In this document: positions 8,418 to 17,185 of the stretch, piece after piece
How positions within the stretch are numbered: the stretch's first letter is position 1
Layout of the letters: each line of letters opens with the position of its first letter
DNA from: an uncultured Acidimicrobiales bacterium
GTDB taxonomy: Bacteria; Actinomycetota; Acidimicrobiia; Acidimicrobiales; CATQHL01
Assembly (NCBI GenBank): GCA_958295925.1
Contig: CATQHL010000001.1
Span: 2,030,780 to 2,094,779 of the forward strand
Reading direction: 5' to 3'
DNA: 64,000 bases
Notes under the pieces: generated by a model
Told to the model about the DNA's origin: nothing
Database searches by the model: none
What the model saw: the letters and a program-made list of their open reading frames with translations, nothing else
Position numbers and translations under genes: made by a program

Positions 8418-10115
8418 GTGGCCTTTCCGACTGACTTGGAGATTGCTGCCGATGCCCGGCTGAGGCCGCTCGAAGACGTCGCAGCCGACGCCGGCATCCC
8501 TCCTGGCTGCCTTGAGCCCTACGGGCGAGGAGCGGCCAAGATCGATCTGTCCGCCGTCGAGCTGATGTCGGACAGGCCCAAGGCCGCCTACGTGGTGGTT
8601 ACCGCCATCACGCCTACGCCGCTGGGTGAGGGAAAGACGACCACAACGGTTGGCCTGGGGCAGGCGTTCGCGCACATCGGGCGCACTGCCACCATCGCAA
8701 TTCGCCAGCCCTCGATGGGCCCGACCTTTGGCATAAAGGGCGGCGCCGCCGGCGGGGGCTACAGCCAAGTCGTCCCGATGGACATTCTGAACTTGCACCT
8801 CACTGGGGACATGCACGCCGTGACCGCCGCCCACAACATGTGTGCAGCACAGCTGGACGCCCACATCTTTCACGGCAACGAGTTGGGGCTGAACCTGCAC
8901 TCGATTACGTGGAGGCGGGTGCTGGACGTTAACGACCGCGCCCTCCGCAACGTGGTAATCGGCCTTGGCGGGCGGCTGGACGGCGTGCCCCGCGAGAGCG
9001 GCTTTGACATCACCGCCGCCTCCGAGGTGATGGCCGCTCTTGCGCTGTCCACCTCCCTCGGTGACTTGCGCGCCCGGCTGGGGCGAATCGTCGTGGGGTA
9101 CACGCGCTCCGGCGACCCTGTGACCGCTGAAGACCTGAAGGCCGCCGGCGCCATGGCCGTGATCTTGCGCGACGCCATTAAACCCAACCTCATGCAGACG
9201 CTGGAGGGCACCCCGGCGCTGGTGCACACAGGGCCATTCGGCAACATCGCCACCGGCAACTCCTCAATCGTGGCCGACAGGGTGGGCATCCGCAGCGCAG
9301 AGTTTCTGGTGACAGAGGCAGGCTTCGGCGCCGACATGGGGGCCGAGCGATTCTTCAACATCAAGTGCCGCTACTCGGGGCTGGCGCCTGACGCCGCGGT
9401 GCTGGTTGCCACCGTGCGCGGGCTGAAGGCGCACTCCGGGCGCCACCGCATCGTGGCGGGGCGACCGTTGCCTGAGGCGCTGTTGGAGGAGAACCCCGAC
9501 GAGGTTCACGAGGGCAGCGCCAACCTGCGCAAGCAAATCGAGAACATTCGCATTCACGGCGTCGCGCCGGTTGTAGCGGTGAACGCCTTTCCCGAAGACC
9601 ATGACGCCGACTTGGCCGCCGTCGGGGAGGTCGCCGAGGCTTGCGGCGTGCGCTGGGCAGTCTCACACCACTTCACGGAAGGCGGGAGGGGGGCGGCGGC
9701 GCTGGCCGAAGCGGTGACGGAGGCTGCTTCGGAGCCTGGGGGTTTTGAAGTGCTCTACCCGTCGGAGTATTCGCTTCGTCAAAAGATTGAATGCGTGGCG
9801 AAGCGTGTCTACGGTGCCGAAGGGGTGGATTACAGCGCTCGGGCCTCACGCGAGATCGACACCTACGAAGCTGCGGGCTTCGGCGACCTTCCTGTGTGCA
9901 TCGCCAAGACTCACCTTTCCCTCTCTTCCGACCCTTCCTTGAGGGGTGCGCCGACGGGCTGGCGGTTGCCGGTGCGGGAGGTGCGCGCCTCTGTGGGGGC
10001 GGGGTTCGTCTATCCCATCTGCGGCGACATGCGCACGATGCCCGGCCTTGGCCGGGCACCTGCCGCACAGGGCATCGACCTCGACGCAGAGGGGCGGATC
10101 GTGGGGCTCAGCTAG
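8418..10115 (+). CDS. fhs: formate--tetrahydrofolate ligase
   Basis: Full-length 565 aa with the PTPLGEGKTTTTVGL P-loop, a GPFGNIA-type string and C-terminal CIAKTHLSLS. GTG start lies 2 nt after the upstream stop. Confidence 0.95.
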   Translation: MAFPTDLEIAADARLRPLEDVAADAGIPPGCLEPYGRGAAKIDLSAVELMSDRPKAAYVVVTAITPTPLGEGKTTTTVGLGQAFAHIGRTATIAIRQPSMGPTFGIKGGAAGGGYSQVVPMDILNLHLTGDMHAVTAAHNMCAAQLDAHIFHGNELGLNLHSITWRRVLDVNDRALRNVVIGLGGRLDGVPRESGFDITAASEVMAALALSTSLGDLRARLGRIVVGYTRSGDPVTAEDLKAAGAMAVILRDAIKPNLMQTLEGTPALVHTGPFGNIATGNSSIVADRVGIRSAEFLVTEAGFGADMGAERFFNIKCRYSGLAPDAAVLVATVRGLKAHSGRHRIVAGRPLPEALLEENPDEVHEGSANLRKQIENIRIHGVAPVVAVNAFPEDHDADLAAVGEVAEACGVRWAVSHHFTEGGRGAAALAEAVTEAASEPGGFEVLYPSEYSLRQKIECVAKRVYGAEGVDYSARASREIDTYEAAGFGDLPVCIAKTHLSLSSDPSLRGAPTGWRLPVREVRASVGAGFVYPICGDMRTMPGLGRAPAAQGIDLDAEGRIVGLS

Positions 10116-10135
10116 GGGGAGTCGTCGGCCGCATC

Positions 10136-11362
10136 GTGCACTCTCGCCAGGACGTCTTATCTCAGCAGACACTTGACTGGCTTTCAGCCACTCCGATTGA
10201 GCAGCGAAAGAGGCTGGGCCAGTTCATGACGCCTGAGCCGCTGCGGGAGCGGTTGCTCGATAGGTGTGATCTGCGTCCCGGGATGAGGGTGTTGGATCCG
10301 GGTGTAGGCACCGGGGAGTTTCTGGCGTCGGTCAGGAGGCGAGAGCCGCTGGCTGAGATATACGGCTGGGATGTCGACCCCGAGGTTTTGTCGGTGGCGG
10401 GGGGAATGGTGCCGGAAGCCCGCCTGAGCGAGAGATCGGCTCTCGATCCTTATCACGGGGAGCAGTTTGACCTTGTTGTCGGCAATCCTCCTTATTTTCA
10501 GTTCAAGGCGCCGGGCGCAGTGAGGAGCCACTTCTCGCAGGTGATTTCTGGGCGGGTGAACATTTTCGCGCTGTTTTTCCAGGCAGGGTTCGAAGTGCTG
10601 CGTTCAGGTGGTCAGCTTGCCTACGTGGTGCCGCCGTCTATGAACAACGGCGCATATTTTGAGCGGCTGCGCGGGTTCCTGGCGCGCAACGCCAGCATTG
10701 AGTTCCTCAAGATTTACAGGGACCAGTCGTTGTTCGACGGAGCCCGAACCCCTGTTCAGCTGATTGTCTTGCGGTTAGGGGAGAGAGACAGTGGCCGCCA
10801 CGTGTTTGTACGGGAAAGCCCCTCCAACGGTTTTCGGCGGACGATTTTCTCCGAGCGTCCGTCGGAACTTGAGCGGGCCTTCAGTGGAAGGAGGACGATG
10901 TATGAGCTTGGGTATGAGGCTGTCACCGGCACGATTGTCTGGAACCAGCACAAGGCCGACTTGCGTCACGAGGCAGGCAGCAACTCATACCCGCTTATTT
11001 GGGCGCACAACATAAGGGAAACGCTGAGTTTGGACAGCGCCCGTCTCAGGCCGCAATTCATAGAGACGCAACGGATTCCTCTAGTAGGCCCCGCAATAGT
11101 GACCAACCGCATAGTCGGCTCTGTCGGCTCGGCGGAATTCAGGTGCGCACTGGTTCCCGAAGGGATGAGCTTCCTGGGCGAGAACCACGTAAACGTCATT
11201 AAACCTCGCGGAATAATCAAACCTGAGATCAGCATGCCACAGTTACTCGATATTCTCAAATCACCACTCACCGTAGATCGAATTCGAAGACTAACTGGAA
11301 ACACGCAAATCTCGGCAACTGAGCTGACGCACCTCCTACCGTTGGTTGCGCAGGAGGTGTGA
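10136..11362 (+). CDS. gamma-class N6-adenine DNA methyltransferase (M.TaqI/Eco57I-like), no cognate endonuclease seen
   Basis: The motif order is X-I-IV: GQFMTPEPL, RVLDPGVGTGEFL, FDLVVGNPPYF, then NIFALFF..LRSGGQLAYVVP and a roughly 200-aa TRD-like C-terminal half. The start is uncertain (GTG 10136 or ATG 10226). The ORF-track extension back to 9791 overlaps fhs and is rejected. Confidence 0.85.
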   Translation: MHSRQDVLSQQTLDWLSATPIEQRKRLGQFMTPEPLRERLLDRCDLRPGMRVLDPGVGTGEFLASVRRREPLAEIYGWDVDPEVLSVAGGMVPEARLSERSALDPYHGEQFDLVVGNPPYFQFKAPGAVRSHFSQVISGRVNIFALFFQAGFEVLRSGGQLAYVVPPSMNNGAYFERLRGFLARNASIEFLKIYRDQSLFDGARTPVQLIVLRLGERDSGRHVFVRESPSNGFRRTIFSERPSELERAFSGRRTMYELGYEAVTGTIVWNQHKADLRHEAGSNSYPLIWAHNIRETLSLDSARLRPQFIETQRIPLVGPAIVTNRIVGSVGSAEFRCALVPEGMSFLGENHVNVIKPRGIIKPEISMPQLLDILKSPLTVDRIRRLTGNTQISATELTHLLPLVAQEV

Positions 11363-11379
11363 GCGTACGCTTCCGAGTT

Positions 11380-11988
11380 TCAGCTAGTTGTATCTCGGTC
11401 AGGTTTGATACGGTCTACGAGCCGCCAGACGCTTGAGCTTGGATTAGAGCCTTCCCGATTTTCGTTGCACTTATGCCGTTCGTCAAGGTCCTTGGCTCGC
11501 TCTTTGGCTTTTTCGTAGTTCTTTAGTATCGTAGGAGTGCTGCTTTTGGGGACTCTTTTGCCAGCAACAATCGAAAGTTGTTCAGCACGCTTTTGGATTA
11601 CCTTGCTATTAATATAGCCTGTCCGATCTTCACAATGCAGCACTAGCCACAGTTCAAAACAAGGGTTGGAGATGACGGTCTTGATTCCATTCTTGCGCGC
11701 TAATTCCTTTGCTTTATCAAGATCTGAGTGTTGATTCACATCGAAGACGCACCAAACTTCGTTATAGTCATCATCTCCACTCTGAGATTTACGAGTCTGA
11801 TCCATTGTCGCTTCTTTTACCAAGTTTAGTGGTGAATCGCCGTAGCTCCCTAAGCTAAGTTGCACACTATTATTTTGTCTATTCCAAATCTGAAGATAGT
11901 CTCTCTCAGTTTGTCCGTCGGTGTGTACTCGTATTCTCCTAGCGCGATTCTTTGCTTGCTTGGGTCGCCGCGAACCTTTTGGGGGCAT
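11380..11988 (-). CDS. RloB-like protein (AbiLii-type partner of the ATPase)
   Basis: N-terminal RIRVHTDGQTERDYL corresponds to the CEG..TE..YF-type motif. VWCVFDVNQH and ISNPCFELWLVLHCED are RloB hallmarks. Its ATG shares one base with the ATPase stop (TGATG). Confidence 0.85.
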   Translation of the reverse strand: MPPKGSRRPKQAKNRARRIRVHTDGQTERDYLQIWNRQNNSVQLSLGSYGDSPLNLVKEATMDQTRKSQSGDDDYNEVWCVFDVNQHSDLDKAKELARKNGIKTVISNPCFELWLVLHCEDRTGYINSKVIQKRAEQLSIVAGKRVPKSSTPTILKNYEKAKERAKDLDERHKCNENREGSNPSSSVWRLVDRIKPDRDTTS

Positions 11989-13256
11989 CAGAGATCAGCA
12001 GAGTGTATTTCCAAGTCGAAATTCGCATGATCGAGGTCAGGCACTCCACCATATCTGCCCACGAGATAGTCTTTCCTTATATCCGTATCCTTGGGCAGAC
12101 TGAAGTCAGTTAGTGGATAAATGCTGGAGACGCCCTCGTGAGTCTTTTTGGTAAGCCAGATTTGGTCAGGCCCCAACCCGTGTAGCTCAATGTCCTCAAA
12201 TAGGTTGTAATCATGGGAATTGAAGATTAGTTGAGCACAGTAAGGATTCTTATGTCCGCTCTGGAAGATGTCAACAGTATGCCTTACTAGACTGGGATGC
12301 AAGCTGGCGTCTAGCTCATCGACTAACAAAACCGTGCCGTCCAAGAGAGAATCGTGTATCTTTCCGACAAGTCCAATCCAGACCTTTGTTCCCAGCGACT
12401 CGTCAAATGATTCGAATTCGAATTCGCCCCAGGGGCTTGAGTGCGTGAGTCGGTAAGGTTCTTCGAACGGATCATCAATGCGCTTTGAAGCTTCATCAAC
12501 CTGTTTGATGTCTGCAACTCCGAGATCTGCAGCACGAATAAGGTTAAGAATATATTTTTTTGTGCTTGGATCCTCAATTAGATGGGAAGTGTGGTAGCCT
12601 CGCATACCACGATTAAGAGAATCTGCCAATTGCAGGTTGTTCTCAAACCAGGAATACAATGGTAGAATTATTGTTTCCCTGAGAGCACCTGCAACAGAAA
12701 GTAGTAGTATATTGTTGCGAAGAAGCTTGTGAAAATAGTTGCTAGTAGGGCGTAGAGATGATCCAAAGGAAATTTCTTCTTCGTTGCGTTCAAAAATAGT
12801 GACTCGACGCCCTTTCGGGTAGTAGTAGGCATGTTCACTAAGCACGTCATTATCGTCTATTGTAAAACCGTAACGCCAGTATACACCTGATATAAGCAGA
12901 TTGACTTCGAAACAAGAAGGCTGCTGAGCAGACTCTTTATCTAGCAGGAAAGGACGACGAAACACGACTTCATCTTTGAATGATTTCAATATAACACTGC
13001 GCATGTCTTTCATGGCTCTCAAGAATGTCGTCTTTCCGGAGGCGTTTGCTCCGAAAATGCCTGCGACCGGCAAGACTTCTACGTGCTTGCCGCTTGCCGT
13101 GGGGAGTTCGCGTGCCGCTGATTGCTTGGCGTGTGAGCCAGCATGCATCGAAAAGTGTTCTTTGTCCCTGTAAGAGAGCACATTCTCCGACTTGAACGAC
13201 AAGAGAGCACTCTGTGAAGGATCAACGATCTCACTGTATTTTGCAGTGGTGCGCAT
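11988..13256 (-). CDS. ABC/SMC-like AAA ATPase (AAA_15/AAA_21 type; AbiLi/RloA-like), copy 1
   Basis: Walker A GIFGANASGKTT, DESLGT, Walker B LLVDELDASLHP and H-loop IFNSHD. It is translationally coupled to the RloB-like gene and is very AT-rich relative to the host. Confidence 0.9.
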   Translation of the reverse strand: MRTTAKYSEIVDPSQSALLSFKSENVLSYRDKEHFSMHAGSHAKQSAARELPTASGKHVEVLPVAGIFGANASGKTTFLRAMKDMRSVILKSFKDEVVFRRPFLLDKESAQQPSCFEVNLLISGVYWRYGFTIDDNDVLSEHAYYYPKGRRVTIFERNEEEISFGSSLRPTSNYFHKLLRNNILLLSVAGALRETIILPLYSWFENNLQLADSLNRGMRGYHTSHLIEDPSTKKYILNLIRAADLGVADIKQVDEASKRIDDPFEEPYRLTHSSPWGEFEFESFDESLGTKVWIGLVGKIHDSLLDGTVLLVDELDASLHPSLVRHTVDIFQSGHKNPYCAQLIFNSHDYNLFEDIELHGLGPDQIWLTKKTHEGVSSIYPLTDFSLPKDTDIRKDYLVGRYGGVPDLDHANFDLEIHSADL

Positions 13257-13262
13257 GTGAAA

Positions 13263-13290
13263 ATTCTACGGAGGATTCCACGACTGTCAA
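13263..13290 (-). promoter_or_regulatory. sigma70-like promoter giving a leaderless ATPase-1 transcript
   Basis: On the minus strand: TTGACA (13290-13285), 16 nt, TAGAAT (13268-13263), 6 nt, ATG (13256). No Shine-Dalgarno sequence is present. Confidence 0.4.
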
Positions 13291-13412
13291 TCTGAACGCC
13301 CTAAACGGGTAAGAATGCGACTAGATCGACTTGGCCGACTGGCTGATCGTGGAATTGTGCAAGGTTCGCGATGATCGTCTTGCTGGGCGGGAAACGTGGA
13401 AAGGAGGGTCAC

Positions 13413-15725
13413 ATGGTGACAATGGTCGGAGCGAGCGTCGTCCGTAAAGAGGACGAGAGCCTTCTGACAGGCAGGGGGAGTTACGTGGACTCTGTTCGGC
13501 TGCCGGGCACCCTCGTAATGCACTTTGTGAGAAGTACGGAGGCGCACGCCCGTATTGTCTCCGTCGACACCGAGGCTGCGGCCGCAGCGCCGGGGGTGCA
13601 TGCCGTCTTTGTGGCTGAGGACTTCGGCGAATACGGCAACCTGCCGGGCGCACCTGGAATGGACTGCCCGTTGCTTGCGCGCGGCGTAGTGCGATTTGCG
13701 GGAGAGGGGGTAGCCCTGGTGGTGGCCGATGATCACGCCTCCGCAGCGGACGCGGCAGTGCTGGTTGAAGTGGACTACGAACCGCTGGAGGTGGTGACCA
13801 CGCCGATCGAGGCGATGGCCGAAGGGGCGCCCGTGCTGCACGAGGCGATCGGCTCCAACGTGCTCCTGGACACGCCTTGGCCGGACAACCTGGCCGCTCT
13901 CTTCTCCGAAGCCCCGCGCACGGCTTCGCTGAGGTTCTGGAACAACCGGTTGCATCCCGTGCCGATGGAGACCAGCGTCGTTCTCGCCGACTGGAAGCAC
14001 GACAAGCTCACAGTGTGGGCGTCCACGCAAGTGCCGCACGCACTGCGTAACACGCTTTCGAACTTCCTCGACATTCAGCAAAGCCGCTGTCGCGTCGTCC
14101 AGCCGGATGTGGGGGGAGGATTCGGCGCCAAGGTGCAGTGGTATCCCGAGCTCCTGCTGGCGCCGATCGCCTCCAAGCGGCTGGGGCGCCCCGTGAAATA
14201 CGTTCAGACGCGCACCGAGTGCTTCCAGGCCATGTTCCCCGGGCGCGATCAGCACCACTCCGTCGACGTTGCGTTCGACGACGACGGCAAAATCCTAGGC
14301 ATTCGCAGCGACGTGATCGCCGACTGCGGCGCATATCCCGATGTTCCTGTGGCCCTGGGCATGCCCACGCTTACGAACTGGATGTCGTCGGGCTGCTACG
14401 CCGTCCCGGCGATTTCGGCAGGCCACAAGGTGGTAGCCACCAACAAGACCCCCTATTCCTCATATCGCGGCGCCGGGCGGCCGGAGGCGGCCTACCTGAT
14501 CGAGCGTGTAGTTGATCTTGTTGCCGCCGAGACAGGGCTCGACCCGGTGGATGTGCGCTTCGCCAACTTCATTCCCGCCGACGCCTTCCCCTACGAGGTG
14601 CCGCACTCCAAAGTCTGTTACGACAGTGGAAACTACAAGGAATCGCTGAAGAAACTGCTGAAGATCGCCAACTACGAGGCCCTCAAGGCCGAGCGGGAGC
14701 GCCGCAACTCAAACCCGGACGAGAAATTGATGGGCATCGGCTTTTCCACATGGGTGGAGATTGCCTCATTCGGGCCGCGCGGCTCGATGGAGGCTTTCGG
14801 GCACATTGGCAGCTACGAGTCGTCGCAGGTGCGGATTCAACCCGACGGCACGGCAATTGTGAACACGGGGGCCGCCCCGCACGGACAGGGGACGGTGACA
14901 GTCCTCTCTCAGATTGCCGCAGACGAGCTGCAGATTCCCTTTGACTACATCATCGTGCGTTACGGCGACACCGACTCGACCCCGCAGGGCGTGGGCACCA
15001 TGGGTTCGCGCACGGCCGCGCTGGCAGGGGAGTCCACCAAGCTGGCAGCGCAGAAGGTGATGGGCGTCGCCCGCCGGGTGGCGGCTCACCTGCTCGAGGC
15101 CAACCCCGACGACGTTGTCTGCGAGGAGGGCAGGTTCTCGGTGGTGGGCACGCCAGAGAAGTCCATCGGCTGGCGGGAGGTCGGCTGGGCGGGGCTGTCG
15201 CCCATGCAGCTTCCCGAAGGCCTGGAGACTGGCTGCCTGGAGTCGACGGCCTACTTCGAGCCTTCAGGCTTCACGTTCCCCTTCGGCGCCTACCTGTGCG
15301 TGGTGGGAATCGACAGGGAGACGGGCGACATTGAGATCGAGCGGTTTCTTACGGTGGACGACTGCGGGACGGTGCTGAATCCGATGCTGGCCGACGGACA
15401 GGTGCAGGGAGGAATCGTGCAGGGCATAGCCCAGGCGCTGTATGAGGAGATGCGCTACGACTCGGAGGGTCAGCCGCTCACGGCCAACCTGGTGGACTAT
15501 TTGATGCCCGCCGCTTCCGACGTGCCGTCGATTGCAAGCGACCGCACGGTGACACCCACTCCGCACAACTCCCTTGGCGCCAAGGGCGTCGGCGAGGCCG
15601 GTTCAATCGGGGCGCCGCCGGCGGTGATCAACGCAGTGGTTGACGCCCTGAGCCGGTTCGGGGTTAGCCACATCGACATGCCGGCCACGCCTGAGAGGAT
15701 CTGGCGCGCAATGCGGGGCGCCTAG
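13413..15725 (+). CDS. xanthine dehydrogenase/aldehyde oxidase/CoxL-family molybdopterin-binding large subunit (orphan copy 1)
   Basis: N-terminal VRKEDESLLTGRGSYVD, DVGGGFGAK, active-site loop YRGAGRPEA and C-terminal LGAKGVGEAGSIGAPPAV. ATG 13413 follows AGGAGGG. No adjacent 2Fe-2S or FAD subunit gene is present. Confidence 0.9.
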   Translation: MVTMVGASVVRKEDESLLTGRGSYVDSVRLPGTLVMHFVRSTEAHARIVSVDTEAAAAAPGVHAVFVAEDFGEYGNLPGAPGMDCPLLARGVVRFAGEGVALVVADDHASAADAAVLVEVDYEPLEVVTTPIEAMAEGAPVLHEAIGSNVLLDTPWPDNLAALFSEAPRTASLRFWNNRLHPVPMETSVVLADWKHDKLTVWASTQVPHALRNTLSNFLDIQQSRCRVVQPDVGGGFGAKVQWYPELLLAPIASKRLGRPVKYVQTRTECFQAMFPGRDQHHSVDVAFDDDGKILGIRSDVIADCGAYPDVPVALGMPTLTNWMSSGCYAVPAISAGHKVVATNKTPYSSYRGAGRPEAAYLIERVVDLVAAETGLDPVDVRFANFIPADAFPYEVPHSKVCYDSGNYKESLKKLLKIANYEALKAERERRNSNPDEKLMGIGFSTWVEIASFGPRGSMEAFGHIGSYESSQVRIQPDGTAIVNTGAAPHGQGTVTVLSQIAADELQIPFDYIIVRYGDTDSTPQGVGTMGSRTAALAGESTKLAAQKVMGVARRVAAHLLEANPDDVVCEEGRFSVVGTPEKSIGWREVGWAGLSPMQLPEGLETGCLESTAYFEPSGFTFPFGAYLCVVGIDRETGDIEIERFLTVDDCGTVLNPMLADGQVQGGIVQGIAQALYEEMRYDSEGQPLTANLVDYLMPAASDVPSIASDRTVTPTPHNSLGAKGVGEAGSIGAPPAVINAVVDALSRFGVSHIDMPATPERIWRAMRGA

Positions 15726-15871
15726 TCGTAGTTCGCTCTGTTCTGATTTGGCAAGTACTTAAGGTGTTCTCTTTCAGTTACTTGGCCTTCGGTGTGGATT
15801 CGAATTACTTGGTTAGTATTAATTCCTGTCGGGCGATGTCTAGGTTATTCATACGAGTTTCCATGGTGCTA

Positions 15872-17185
15872 CTAGGTTGTTGCCAGCTCGAAGTCTGCAG
15901 GGTCAAGATTTGGTATTCCTCCGTATCTGCCAAAGAGGTAACGGTGCATGAATGCCTCATCCTTTCGTGTGTTATAGCTGCTGAGAGGATAAATGCTCGT
16001 GATACCGTGCAGATCTTTTTCGGCAAACCAGATTTGATCTCTGCCTAGACGGGGAAATTCGCCCTCTTCAAGCAGAGTGGGATCGTGTGAGTTGAAGATT
16101 AGTTGAGAGCACTTTGGGTTTGTTTTGGGGTCTTGAAATAGACGTATGACTTGCTGGACGAGAAGAGGGTGAAGACTTGAGTCAAGCTCGTCGATCAGTA
16201 TGTGCGTACCGCTGCCTAAAGCAAACAAAATTGGGCCGATTAATCCTATCCACGTTAGTGTTCCCAAGGATTCATCTTCGGCATCGAGCGCGACGGAGCC
16301 CGACGGAGTCGAGTGGGTCAGCTTGAGGATGTCGTTGACAAACATAACCTCATCGTCATTTAATTCTTCATTGCCAGTGAGAATTGCTGCGGCTTTTTTC
16401 ATTCGCTCCATAATTTCGGGACTTGTTGGAACCCGCTCAATGTCAGTAATACCAAGGTCGGCAGATCTCAAGAGTAACAACACGCGCTCGCGCACGTTCA
16501 GATCCCTCGACATGTCGGCGGTAAATACACAGCGCAAATCGCGGTTGTCGGATTCGGCTAGTTGAAAGTTATTTCTAAACCATAAAAAGAGCGAGCTGAG
16601 AGGGTAGTGGGCGGTTGCGCCTGCGACAGAAAGCAGAAGGGAATTGCCTCGAAGAAACGGAAGCAGCAAACGTCCTAAAGAACGGAAGCGGGGGCCGAAT
16701 GTGGTGCGATCCCCGTCGCGCTCAAAGACCAGCGCCTTACGCCCGTTGGGGTAGTGAAAGGCGAACTCATTCAGCACCCGAGTGTCGTCAAACTCGAAGC
16801 CGTACTGCCAGCGGACGCCTTCGACTATGAGGTCGATTTCGAAACTTGAGGGCCGTCGAGCAGATTCGTCGTCTAACAGGAACGGGCGACGGTACATACC
16901 GCTCTCCACGTTGCCCTGTCGGAAAGAACTCAAGACGACCTTGCGCATGTCATCGATCGCCTTGAGGAGGGTTGACTTTCCGGAGGCGTTGGCGCCGAAA
17001 ATGCCCGCTGCAGGCAGTACTCGGACGGGGCTGCCGGCCGTGGGCAGGGCATGAACCGCCGATTTCTCTGAGAGCCTTCCGGCATGCATAGGCAAATACA
17101 CCTCGTCCCGGTAGGAGCGAACGTTCTCTGCGGCGAATGACAAGAGAGCACTTGGGAGAGAAGAAGGAGTTTCTAAGGCGGACAT
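15872..17185 (-). CDS. ABC/SMC-like AAA ATPase, paralog (copy 2) of 11988..13256, no RloB partner
   Basis: It aligns end to end with copy 1 (AGIFGANASGKST, RRPFLLD, LLLSVAGA, DESLGT, ILIDELDSSLHP, QLIFNSHD, GRYGGIPNLD). It ends in a double stop, TAGTAG. Confidence 0.9.
   Translation of the reverse strand: MSALETPSSLPSALLSFAAENVRSYRDEVYLPMHAGRLSEKSAVHALPTAGSPVRVLPAAGIFGANASGKSTLLKAIDDMRKVVLSSFRQGNVESGMYRRPFLLDDESARRPSSFEIDLIVEGVRWQYGFEFDDTRVLNEFAFHYPNGRKALVFERDGDRTTFGPRFRSLGRLLLPFLRGNSLLLSVAGATAHYPLSSLFLWFRNNFQLAESDNRDLRCVFTADMSRDLNVRERVLLLLRSADLGITDIERVPTSPEIMERMKKAAAILTGNEELNDDEVMFVNDILKLTHSTPSGSVALDAEDESLGTLTWIGLIGPILFALGSGTHILIDELDSSLHPLLVQQVIRLFQDPKTNPKCSQLIFNSHDPTLLEEGEFPRLGRDQIWFAEKDLHGITSIYPLSSYNTRKDEAFMHRYLFGRYGGIPNLDPADFELATT

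Follow-up and report, generated by a model that had tools for sequence, protein, structure and literature searches.

The three genes between fhs and a molybdopterin hydroxylase gene in the 64-kb window (the whole stretch of DNA that was analysed, from an uncultured Acidimicrobiales bacterium) very probably represent two independent, already-known modules that lie side by side in a variable slot, i.e., a stand-alone AbiL operon and an orphan Type II DNA methyltransferase (MTase). The clustering of mobile defence genes at a recombination hotspot would account for the adjacency of MTase and AbiL, and not a functional three-gene unit.

Layout and base composition downstream of fhs

The conserved gene fhs (formate-tetrahydrofolate ligase, 8418..10115, plus strand; FTHFS, 5e-244) forms the left boundary of the slot, and the gene for the large subunit of a molybdopterin hydroxylase (Mo-hydroxylase, 13371..15725, plus strand; Ald_Xan_dh_C, MoCoBD_1 and MoCoBD_2) follows on the right. 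The first-pass annotation had placed three ORFs in between, for an MTase, an ATPase and an RloB-like protein, and the ORF list has them at these positions. The ORF coordinates likewise confirm the convergent gap of 17 bp (11363-11379), which lies between MTase and RloB, and the TGATG sequence at 11988, where the ATPase stop and the RloB start overlap by one base. No nuclease-like ORF fits between the end of fhs at 10115 and the start of the Mo-hydroxylase gene at 13371, and the island is indeed without an endonuclease.

At 11.4-13.0 kb the GC content is only 0.41-0.49, down from 0.65-0.69. The drop described for the island is therefore real, but it is not uniform: the MTase gene has a GC content of 57.5% compared to 46% for the ATPase-RloB pair. 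GC3 is about 0.8 in the host genes, 0.65 in the MTase gene and only 0.47 and 0.44 in the ATPase and RloB genes, respectively, so that the composition drops in two steps. The low-GC patch is also not the only one, as a second patch at 15.7-17.2 kb, which carries a decayed AbiL copy, had been overlooked. The Mo-hydroxylase gene is a conserved host gene that separates the two AbiL patches.

The second patch contains a paralogous AbiLi-type ATPase of 437 aa (15872..17185, minus strand; AbiLi 1.3e-83), which is 47% identical to the first ATPase and identical to the database protein P0007. Of its RloB partner an N-terminal remnant of about 22-25 codons is left (15740..15805, minus strand; tblastn 54.5% over 22 aa), cut off beside the 3' end of the Mo-hydroxylase gene. 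The remnant frame translates to VIRIHTEGQVTEREHLKYLPNQN compared to RIRVHTDGQTERDYLQIWNRQN, stop codons are found upstream, and it reads as a pseudogene fragment. This second AbiL copy, 2.5 kb off, is already decayed to an ATPase and an RloB stub. The second-ATPase insertion between the Mo-hydroxylase and UDG genes is absent in two sister genomes (L001 and L002), and in a third one (L166) no gene is called there.

The methyltransferase and its usual neighbours

The MTase gene (10136..11362, plus strand) encodes a solitary gamma-class (M.TaqI-like) N6-adenine DNA methyltransferase of 408 aa. It starts with a GTG on the same strand as fhs and 20 bp behind the fhs stop; the open frame (9791..11362) offers no other plausible start beyond fhs. 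The public gene call P0121 (378 aa) is probably too short at the N-terminus, because conservation among the homologues reaches upstream past the ATG at 10226.

The earlier assignment to the M.TaqI/Eco57I type is well supported. The protein matches Eco57I (1.2e-14) and N6_Mtase (2.4e-9), both above the Pfam cut-offs, as well as the PADLOC models MTase_II (4e-45) and oMTase (1e-25), and M.TaqI is its best solved relative (5e-13). In a full-length alignment with 55 homologues motif I and NPPY are invariant, and the family also conserves a C-terminal half of about 165 aa at the place of the target-recognition domain of M.TaqI. The SAM-binding motif I (VLDPGVGTGEF, residues 52-62) lies N-terminal to the NPPY motif IV (GNPPYF, residues 116-121) and a C-terminal recognition domain follows, which is the gamma-class order of Type II enzymes (FxGxG, NPPY, C-terminal recognition domain) that the window MTase has in common with M.TaqI-type R-M systems and orphan Type II MTases. 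Relatives were not found in the phage collection, and plasmid relatives are only about 28% identical.

As the gene directly follows a gene of one-carbon metabolism and also gives weak matches to the NCBIfam PrmC/HemK models (2e-7, far under the cut-off), it could be asked whether a protein or RNA methyltransferase, i.e., a HemK/PrmC-like NPPY enzyme, had been recruited downstream of fhs. Given that the DNA methyltransferase families exceed their Pfam cut-offs, with M.TaqI as the best solved relative, and that a conserved C-terminal half occupies the position of the target-recognition domain, this is the least probable of all readings considered here and extremely unlikely. The recurrent nuclease-like ORFs beside homologues and the sister genomes that do without the gene also argue against it.

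Neither the ATPase nor RloB was found near the MTase homologues (0/83 loci). Instead, an ORF without Pfam match recurs beside the MTase, in 27 of the 42 loci whose flanks both extend over 1 kb or more and in 49 of the 69 loci with one such flank. These ORFs fall into five families of 200-330 aa, are located 0-70 bp from the MTase gene and are mostly convergent to it. Pfam and PADLOC searches with all five families gave no match, and neither did PDB sequence and profile searches with three of them. Two of the five have invariant D…ExK motifs, and on the basis only of position and these motifs the families are probable restriction enzymes. Members of the MTase family normally are the methylating partner in a compact R-M pair.

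The window MTase differs from M.TaqI-type R-M systems in that no endonuclease partner is present, either beside it, where fhs (20 bp) and RloB (17 bp) are the neighbours in place of the adjacent cognate endonuclease of a complete Type II R-M system, or elsewhere in the 64-kb window, in which none of the five partner families was found. Lacking a partner, the window copy is therefore an orphan. Of the two readings put forward in the first-pass annotation, a true orphan MTase or a three-gene MTase-coupled module, the former is favoured by the missing partner families and by the absence of ATPase or RloB from all 83 loci. A cognate endonuclease may be encoded far away in the 2.55-Mb genome.

The MTase homologues usually have the convergent restriction gene at the very position of RloB and with a similarly tiny gap (17 bp in the window). 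It could be read such that AbiL stands where the restriction enzyme would be, i.e., took its place. Alternatively, the whole cassette of MTase and divergent AbiL allele might have come together from an unsampled donor.

The AbiL pair and its relatives

The description of the pair as AbiL-like is confirmed at the profile level. The ATPase (11988..13256, minus strand, 422 aa) is an AbiLi-type ABC ATPase (AAA_21 5.4e-34; PADLOC AbiLi 1.7e-79) with an invariant Walker A (G69-K75) and D313 region, and RloB (P0241; 11380..11988, minus strand, 202 aa) is an AbiLii-type putative Toprim effector (Pfam RloB 4.6e-33; PADLOC AbiLii 1.1e-22). The gene-level elements by which PADLOC and DefenseFinder define AbiL, the ATPase, the RloB-family partner and their adjacency and co-orientation, are present. 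PDB sequence and profile searches with both proteins gave no match. The AlphaFold model of RloB (pLDDT 89) consists of alternating beta-alpha units with a beta-alpha-beta core, and its acidic motifs follow strand 1 (D24/E28) and strand 3 (D83-V-N85), where in comparison to the Toprim consensus a D replaces the E and an N replaces the second D. When the model was compared with the PDB by Foldseek only generic alpha/beta matches with a TM of about 0.3 were obtained and the Toprim fold was not recovered.

Just upstream of the ATPase start a promoter-like site (TTGACA-16-TAGAAT, 13263..13290, minus strand) matches the consensus at 11 of 12 positions, in a consensus-only scan that returned 10 sites compared to 3.1 expected in this AT-rich stretch. 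The site implies that the pair would be a separate transcription unit.

As in AbiL of Lactococcus lactis, an AAA_21 ABC ATPase is followed by an RloB-family protein in a two-gene, co-oriented and overlapping operon. However, the lactococcal system is located on a plasmid and the window pair on a high-GC actinobacterial-type chromosome, and the likeness is one of profiles, read here from the genes alone. AbiL has been grouped with PARIS as a system of ABC ATPase and TOPRIM protein (PMC11464382; PMC13064643). In both, a small putative Toprim effector accompanies an AAA_15/21-family ATPase, and a sensor ATPase that holds a nuclease is likely to be the common logic (PMC11464382). In contrast to the window pair, the PARIS effector is AriB/DUF4435 and not RloB (PF13707), and its tRNA cleavage and its trigger Ocr are not evidenced for the pair. 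Membership in PARIS was rejected, since, despite the match of the ATPase to AriA-type models (5.7e-32), AbiLii is the only PADLOC model that RloB matches and an AriB/DUF4435 protein is missing.

The genomic context of the ATPase was surveyed in 79 homologue loci beyond the three sister loci, with an MTase HMM search within 10 kb. RloB lies directly downstream of the ATPase in 66 of these loci, whereas an MTase of the window family was detected in none (0/79); two further RloB contexts also contained no MTase. The only HMM matches were Type I HsdM proteins in 10/79 loci, adjacent in seven and at 2-6 kb in three, and the other neighbours were unrelated housekeeping or assorted genes. HsdR is encoded in eight of these ten loci, namely all seven Streptomyces-type loci and L057. 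The Type I linkage is limited to a Streptomyces/Nonomuraea subclade and a few other relatives, and includes hsdS beside hsdM. The Streptomyces arrangement of ATPase, RloB, HsdM and HsdS was considered as an endonuclease-free MTase-coupled system and discarded, because an HsdR homologue follows 2.5-3 kb downstream in 7/7 loci.

The ATPase and RloB domain pair resembles the restriction-linked ORFs RloA/RloB of Campylobacter Type I R-M loci (PMC13064643). This link, which the first-pass annotation had named, holds for a minority of the homologues, but not for the window, where hsdM, hsdS and hsdR are absent beside the pair and the neighbours are fhs, the M.TaqI-like MTase and Mo-hydroxylase. Instead of a Type I system the neighbour is a single-chain Type II enzyme, which is missing from the orthologous loci.

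Independent modules or a common system

The synteny of Mo-hydroxylase and ATPase is common to the three sister loci (L001, L002 and L166). It extends over RloB as far as fhs in L001 and L002, whereas the L166 contig ends at the ATPase, short of the RloB/fhs junction. In L001 and L002, fhs and Mo-hydroxylase are 90-91% (amino acid level) and 84% identical to the window, respectively; the sister alleles of ATPase (about 65%) and RloB (49-56%) are less similar. In both loci that reach the junction only about 50 bp separate the RloB stop from the fhs stop and therefore the MTase is absent from this site.

L001 and L002 have 95-97% nucleotide identity to each other, except for the 3' end of the ATPase gene and RloB (55-78%), and this divergent stretch ends at fhs. 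The comparison marks the slot downstream of fhs as a recombination hotspot, in which RloB and the ATPase 3' end are swapped as one unit between near-identical genomes. Their joint exchange hints that the ATPase C-terminus may be matched to its effector.

A three-gene module, in which the MTase marks self DNA and the ATPase-RloB pair replaces the conventional restriction enzyme as methylation-sensitive effector, is very improbable on this evidence. It would agree with the tight convergent packing (17 bp), with the lack of an endonuclease in the island and with the position of the MTase relative to its neighbour, which is that of the R-M pairs of its family. However, the linkage does not recur: the neighbourhood counts in both directions (0/79 ATPase loci and 0/83 MTase loci) and the two extra RloB contexts returned no ATPase-RloB pair that adjoins this MTase family, and L001 and L002 retain the pair without the MTase at the orthologous site. 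In addition, MTase and pair differ in base composition, and they are convergent and therefore cannot be co-transcribed, the pair having its own promoter-like site. MTase-coupled ATPase/Toprim systems do exist, as an N6-MTase, an ABC ATPase (mad3) and a TOPRIM protein (mad4) all belong to MADS (mad1-8), and the window MTase matches the PADLOC model mad2 (2.6e-26) and the ATPase weakly mad3 (1.2e-5). Nevertheless, the mad2 match spans the generic catalytic domain only, the mad3 match is marginal, RloB does not match mad4, and mad6, mad7 and mad8, which the detection model demands, are absent from an island of only three genes directly flanked by housekeeping genes; MADS membership was thus rejected. 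Even less probable is that the ATPase-RloB pair captured an M.TaqI-like MTase, with an effector that acts on unmarked DNA or that the MTase licenses or guards. If true, a methylation-coupled system of the MADS kind, minimal and without an endonuclease, would have arisen a single time and too recently for it to recur in databases.

Cooperation of two independent modules, where the AbiL pair would be a PARIS-like back-up against anti-restriction or anti-methylation proteins of phages and the endonuclease of the MTase is encoded elsewhere, is unlikely as well. Although the AriA-type matches of the ATPase, the placement of AbiL with PARIS (PMC11464382; PMC13064643) and the roughly 13% of homologous pairs that adjoin Type I R-M loci speak for it, RloB matches AbiLii only, an AriB/DUF4435 protein is not encoded and a trigger is not known for any AbiL system. 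Moreover, in every case where a partner was found for this Type II family, the R gene lay next to the M gene, and the 64-kb window has none of the five partner families.

For the favoured reading, a stand-alone AbiL operon next to an orphan MTase, the AbiL operon would be the resident of the slot, as it is present in the sister genomes, with its own promoter-like site. By analogy to PARIS and OLD-family systems of ATPase and Toprim proteins, the ATPase would be the sensor of infection that holds or licenses the RloB nuclease, and abortion of the infection would follow from the attack of this nuclease on nucleic acid. The orphan MTase would be an insertion specific to the lineage of the window, with the fhs stop and the RloB stop as its exact borders, and read-through from fhs probably accounts for its transcription.

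As it stands the locus matters little: it contributes a further case, of actinobacterial type, of the widespread AbiL/RloAB pair together with an orphaned MTase of Type II, and it cautions that close packing within a defence hotspot is no evidence of a system. Mechanistic work on AbiL would apply broadly, because the ATPase has over 6000 homologues at E<=1e-10, and the MTase family marks at least five unannotated families of probable restriction enzymes that are open to mining.

Genes of the low-GC island

Downstream of the end of fhs (8418..10115 (+)) the ORF map shows a plus-strand ORF with its stop at 11362, which lies in the same orientation 20 bp behind fhs and encodes the methyltransferase (MTase, 10136..11362 (+), 408 aa). 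The public gene call P0121 for this gene comprises 378 aa and begins with ATG 10226. As about 20 residues before this ATG (window 10136-10225) are kept in homologues (…RKRLGQFMTP), the GTG at 10136, the sole sensible start downstream of fhs, is favored. Pfam identified Eco57I (1.2e-14) and N6_Mtase (2.4e-9) domains, the PADLOC models MTase_II/oMTase were matched and the best solved relative is M.TaqI (5e-13, catalytic domain). Motif I and the NPPY motif are intact and the protein aligns to its family over the full length, which argues for an active m6A DNA methyltransferase. The window MTase has the characteristics of a gamma-class Type II MTase and does not have those of a complete R-M system.

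Separated from the MTase stop by a gap of 17 bp, RloB (11380..11988 (-), 202 aa; Pfam RloB 4.6e-33; PADLOC AbiLii 1.1e-22) and the ATPase (11988..13256 (-), 422 aa; Pfam AAA_21 5.4e-34; PADLOC AbiLi 1.7e-79) are encoded on the opposite strand, with one base shared by the ATPase stop and the RloB start. The three genes of the first-pass annotation were thus confirmed by the ORF map, Pfam, PADLOC and the M.TaqI relative, and the convergent gap and the stop/start overlap it described are seen in the ORF map. The reported drop in GC content is real as well, from about 0.66 to 0.41-0.49 across 11.4-13.0 kb, though it occurs in two steps, with 57.5% for the MTase (GC3 0.65) and 46% for the ATPase and RloB (GC3 0.47 and 0.44), compared to a host GC3 of about 0.8. 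Because they are convergent, the MTase and the pair do not form a common operon; upstream of the pair a near-consensus TTGACA-16-TAGAAT is present, which is a consensus match only.

The predicted model of RloB (pLDDT 89) contains four beta-alpha units, in which strands 1 and 3 are followed by the conserved acidic positions, and would be compatible with a Toprim core; no Toprim structure was among those retrieved from the PDB by Foldseek. At residue 24, RloB (window 11383-11988) has D, a position occupied in most homologues by the E of the 'EG' motif. Residue 85 is N in place of the second D of the consensus 'FDVD', which is probably tolerated since several aligned homologues also have N.

A second low-GC patch at 15.7-17.2 kb was overlooked in the first-pass annotation. 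Here a second, intact AbiLi-type ATPase is encoded (15872..17185 (-), 437 aa, 47% identical to the first; AbiLi 1.3e-83), directly followed downstream by an RloB stub of about 25 codons (VIRIHTEGQVTEREHLKYLPNQN), which has stop codons upstream and is truncated beside the 3' end of the molybdopterin hydroxylase (Mo-hydroxylase) gene (13371..15725 (+)). The stretch 15740-17185 (-) is a second AbiL locus in decay. A third ATPase paralogue, P0004, is found in the same genome outside the window.

Neighborhoods of the ATPase and MTase homologues

The first-pass annotation had proposed that the ATPase-RloB pair is the methylation-sensitive effector of a three-gene, MTase-coupled module. The ATPase has at least 6332 homologues. 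For the survey, ATPase homologues were collected by a pattern scan with one genome per species (79 loci, relatives 35-47% identical, flanks up to 10 kb), and neighbors were detected using HMMs built from sequences collected in this analysis. RloB lies directly downstream of the ATPase in 66 of the 79 loci, and an MTase of the window family was found within the flanks of none of them. The only matches of the MTase HMM were Type I HsdM proteins, 7 immediately downstream and 3 at 2-6 kb upstream. Likewise, in Pfam scans of the immediate up- and downstream neighbors HsdM_N/N6_Mtase (6 members) was the sole recurring DNA-MTase family, and the remaining neighbors were heterogeneous. Two further RloB homologues (45-46% identity) are also paired and have unrelated genes on their flanks.

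The seven HsdM-adjacent loci belong to a Streptomyces/Nonomuraea subclade (L071, L072, L074, L075, L077, L078, L081; about 9.9-21 kb), in which ATPase, RloB, HsdM and HsdS are co-oriented and HsdM (about 866 aa) carries a long C-terminal extension. An HsdR homologue is located 2.5-3 kb beyond the HsdS cluster in all seven, with HTH/DUF5753 genes and genes of unknown function standing in between, and in a further locus, L057, HsdR is adjacent. An endonuclease-free reading of the hsd-linked RloAB loci was therefore rejected, and these loci are classical "restriction-linked" RloAB contexts. The earlier association of rloA/rloB with Type I R-M systems holds for them, and the window differs in having no hsd genes.

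The MTase family gave 2363 matches at E≤1e-5, the best 120 of which are 53-69% identical to the window MTase, and the C-terminal half is conserved across the family too. None of the 83 MTase-homologue loci surveyed (at least 1.5 kb downstream in 54, at least 1.5 kb upstream in 38) contained an ATPase or RloB HMM match. When the neighbors were clustered, five families without a Pfam match (200-330 aa) recurred, mostly convergent and 0-70 bp from the MTase (L084, L086, L090-L165); the closest homologue with a partner is that of L086. Of the 42 loci in which both flanks extend over at least 1 kb, 27 encode such a family; where one flank reaches this length, the figure is 49 of 69. An invariant D…ExK occurs in families 1 and 2 (D85/E96/K98 and D98/E115/K117). 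Some loci encode two partners, either families 3 and 4 (L101, L106, L108, L110, L113, L116) or families 2 and 1 (L121, L124, L126, L127). As Pfam and PADLOC gave zero matches for these partners, and the PDB none for the three compared with it, we infer their nuclease role; such a picture is expected where the members of a Type II MTase family have different restriction endonucleases as partners, and the five unannotated families are candidates for new restriction enzymes or for two-subunit partners. One MTase homologue, P0155 (63% identical), is situated in a dense defense island of the sister genome L083 (contig about 804-822 kb), together with Dnd-like genes (PAPS_reduct, DUF4007, cysteine desulfurase), a PIN protein, two proteins of ThsB_TIR type and two N6_N4 MTases.

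The MTase linkage recurs neither at the ATPase nor at the MTase loci surveyed, an outcome that the first-pass annotation itself had named as speaking against the three-gene module, and the module is not supported. That a one-off, very recent functional capture has joined the MTase to the ATPase-RloB pair is highly improbable. None of the five partner families was found in the 64-kb window, and a cognate endonuclease for the MTase may be encoded elsewhere in the genome.

Sister loci and recombination downstream of fhs

The ATPases closest to that of the window, three proteins of 64-67% identity, come from the sister contigs L001, L002 and L166, where the gene order is as in the window. L001 and L002 encode CoA-transferase, muconolactone isomerase, fhs, RloB, ATPase, Mo-hydroxylase and a UDG/methyltransferase fusion, and the shorter L166 contig UDG, Mo-hydroxylase and ATPase before it ends. 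Identity to the window is 90-91% for fhs and 84% for the Mo-hydroxylase. In L001 and L002 only about 50 bp separate the fhs stop from the RloB stop, so the MTase is absent from this slot; the second ATPase is missing too, as only 18 bp lie between the Mo-hydroxylase gene and UDG in L001, and in L002 these two genes overlap by a few bases. The pair of the sisters is likewise AT-rich (42-45% GC). Since L001 and L002 keep the pair without MTase or second ATPase, the AbiL pair is the resident of the slot, and the window lineage alone has gained the MTase and the second AbiL copy. In the L001 genome two MTase homologues are encoded, at distances of about 300 and 540 kb from the AbiL pair of that genome, and one of them is adjoined by a member of partner family 1.

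L001 and L002 share 95-97% nucleotide identity over the region except for a block of about 850 bp (L001 11034-11870, aligned), in which identity falls to 55-78%; this block comprises all of RloB together with the 3' end of the ATPase gene and terminates exactly at fhs. At the protein level, the ATPases are 89% identical and the RloBs only 54%; it seems that the RloB effector was exchanged together with the C-terminus of the ATPase, as a single unit. The fhs-stop/RloB-stop junction of L002 (reverse strand of about 11369-11450) contains a second copy of roughly the final 30 bp of fhs (…GGGGGCATAGTCGGGCTCAGCTAGGGGGTGCTGT), which lies at the RloB stop about 48 bp further downstream. In the window, TCAGCTAG is found at the fhs stop (10107-10115) and at the RloB stop (11379-11386). 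These repeats may represent a scar of recombination or attachment, and the MTase of the window was inserted at the same fhs/RloB junction. The slot downstream of fhs is a recombination hotspot.

Relation to known defense systems

AbiL is grouped with PARIS, MADS3-4 and OLD-family systems, which combine an ABC ATPase with a TOPRIM nuclease, and its mechanism and trigger are stated as unknown (PMC11464382; PMC13064643). The window pair corresponds to AbiL in sequence and arrangement; it differs from PARIS in the absence of AriB and from MADS in the absence of mad4 or mad6-8. By analogy with these systems, the ATPase would most likely act as a sensor that restrains or licenses the putative small nuclease, which in turn would lead to abortive infection. 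The locus provides further examples of already known kinds, an AbiL pair and a gamma-class Type II MTase. Its analysis yielded two useful by-products, the observation of a hotspot with an apparent effector swap and several unannotated families that are candidate restriction enzymes.
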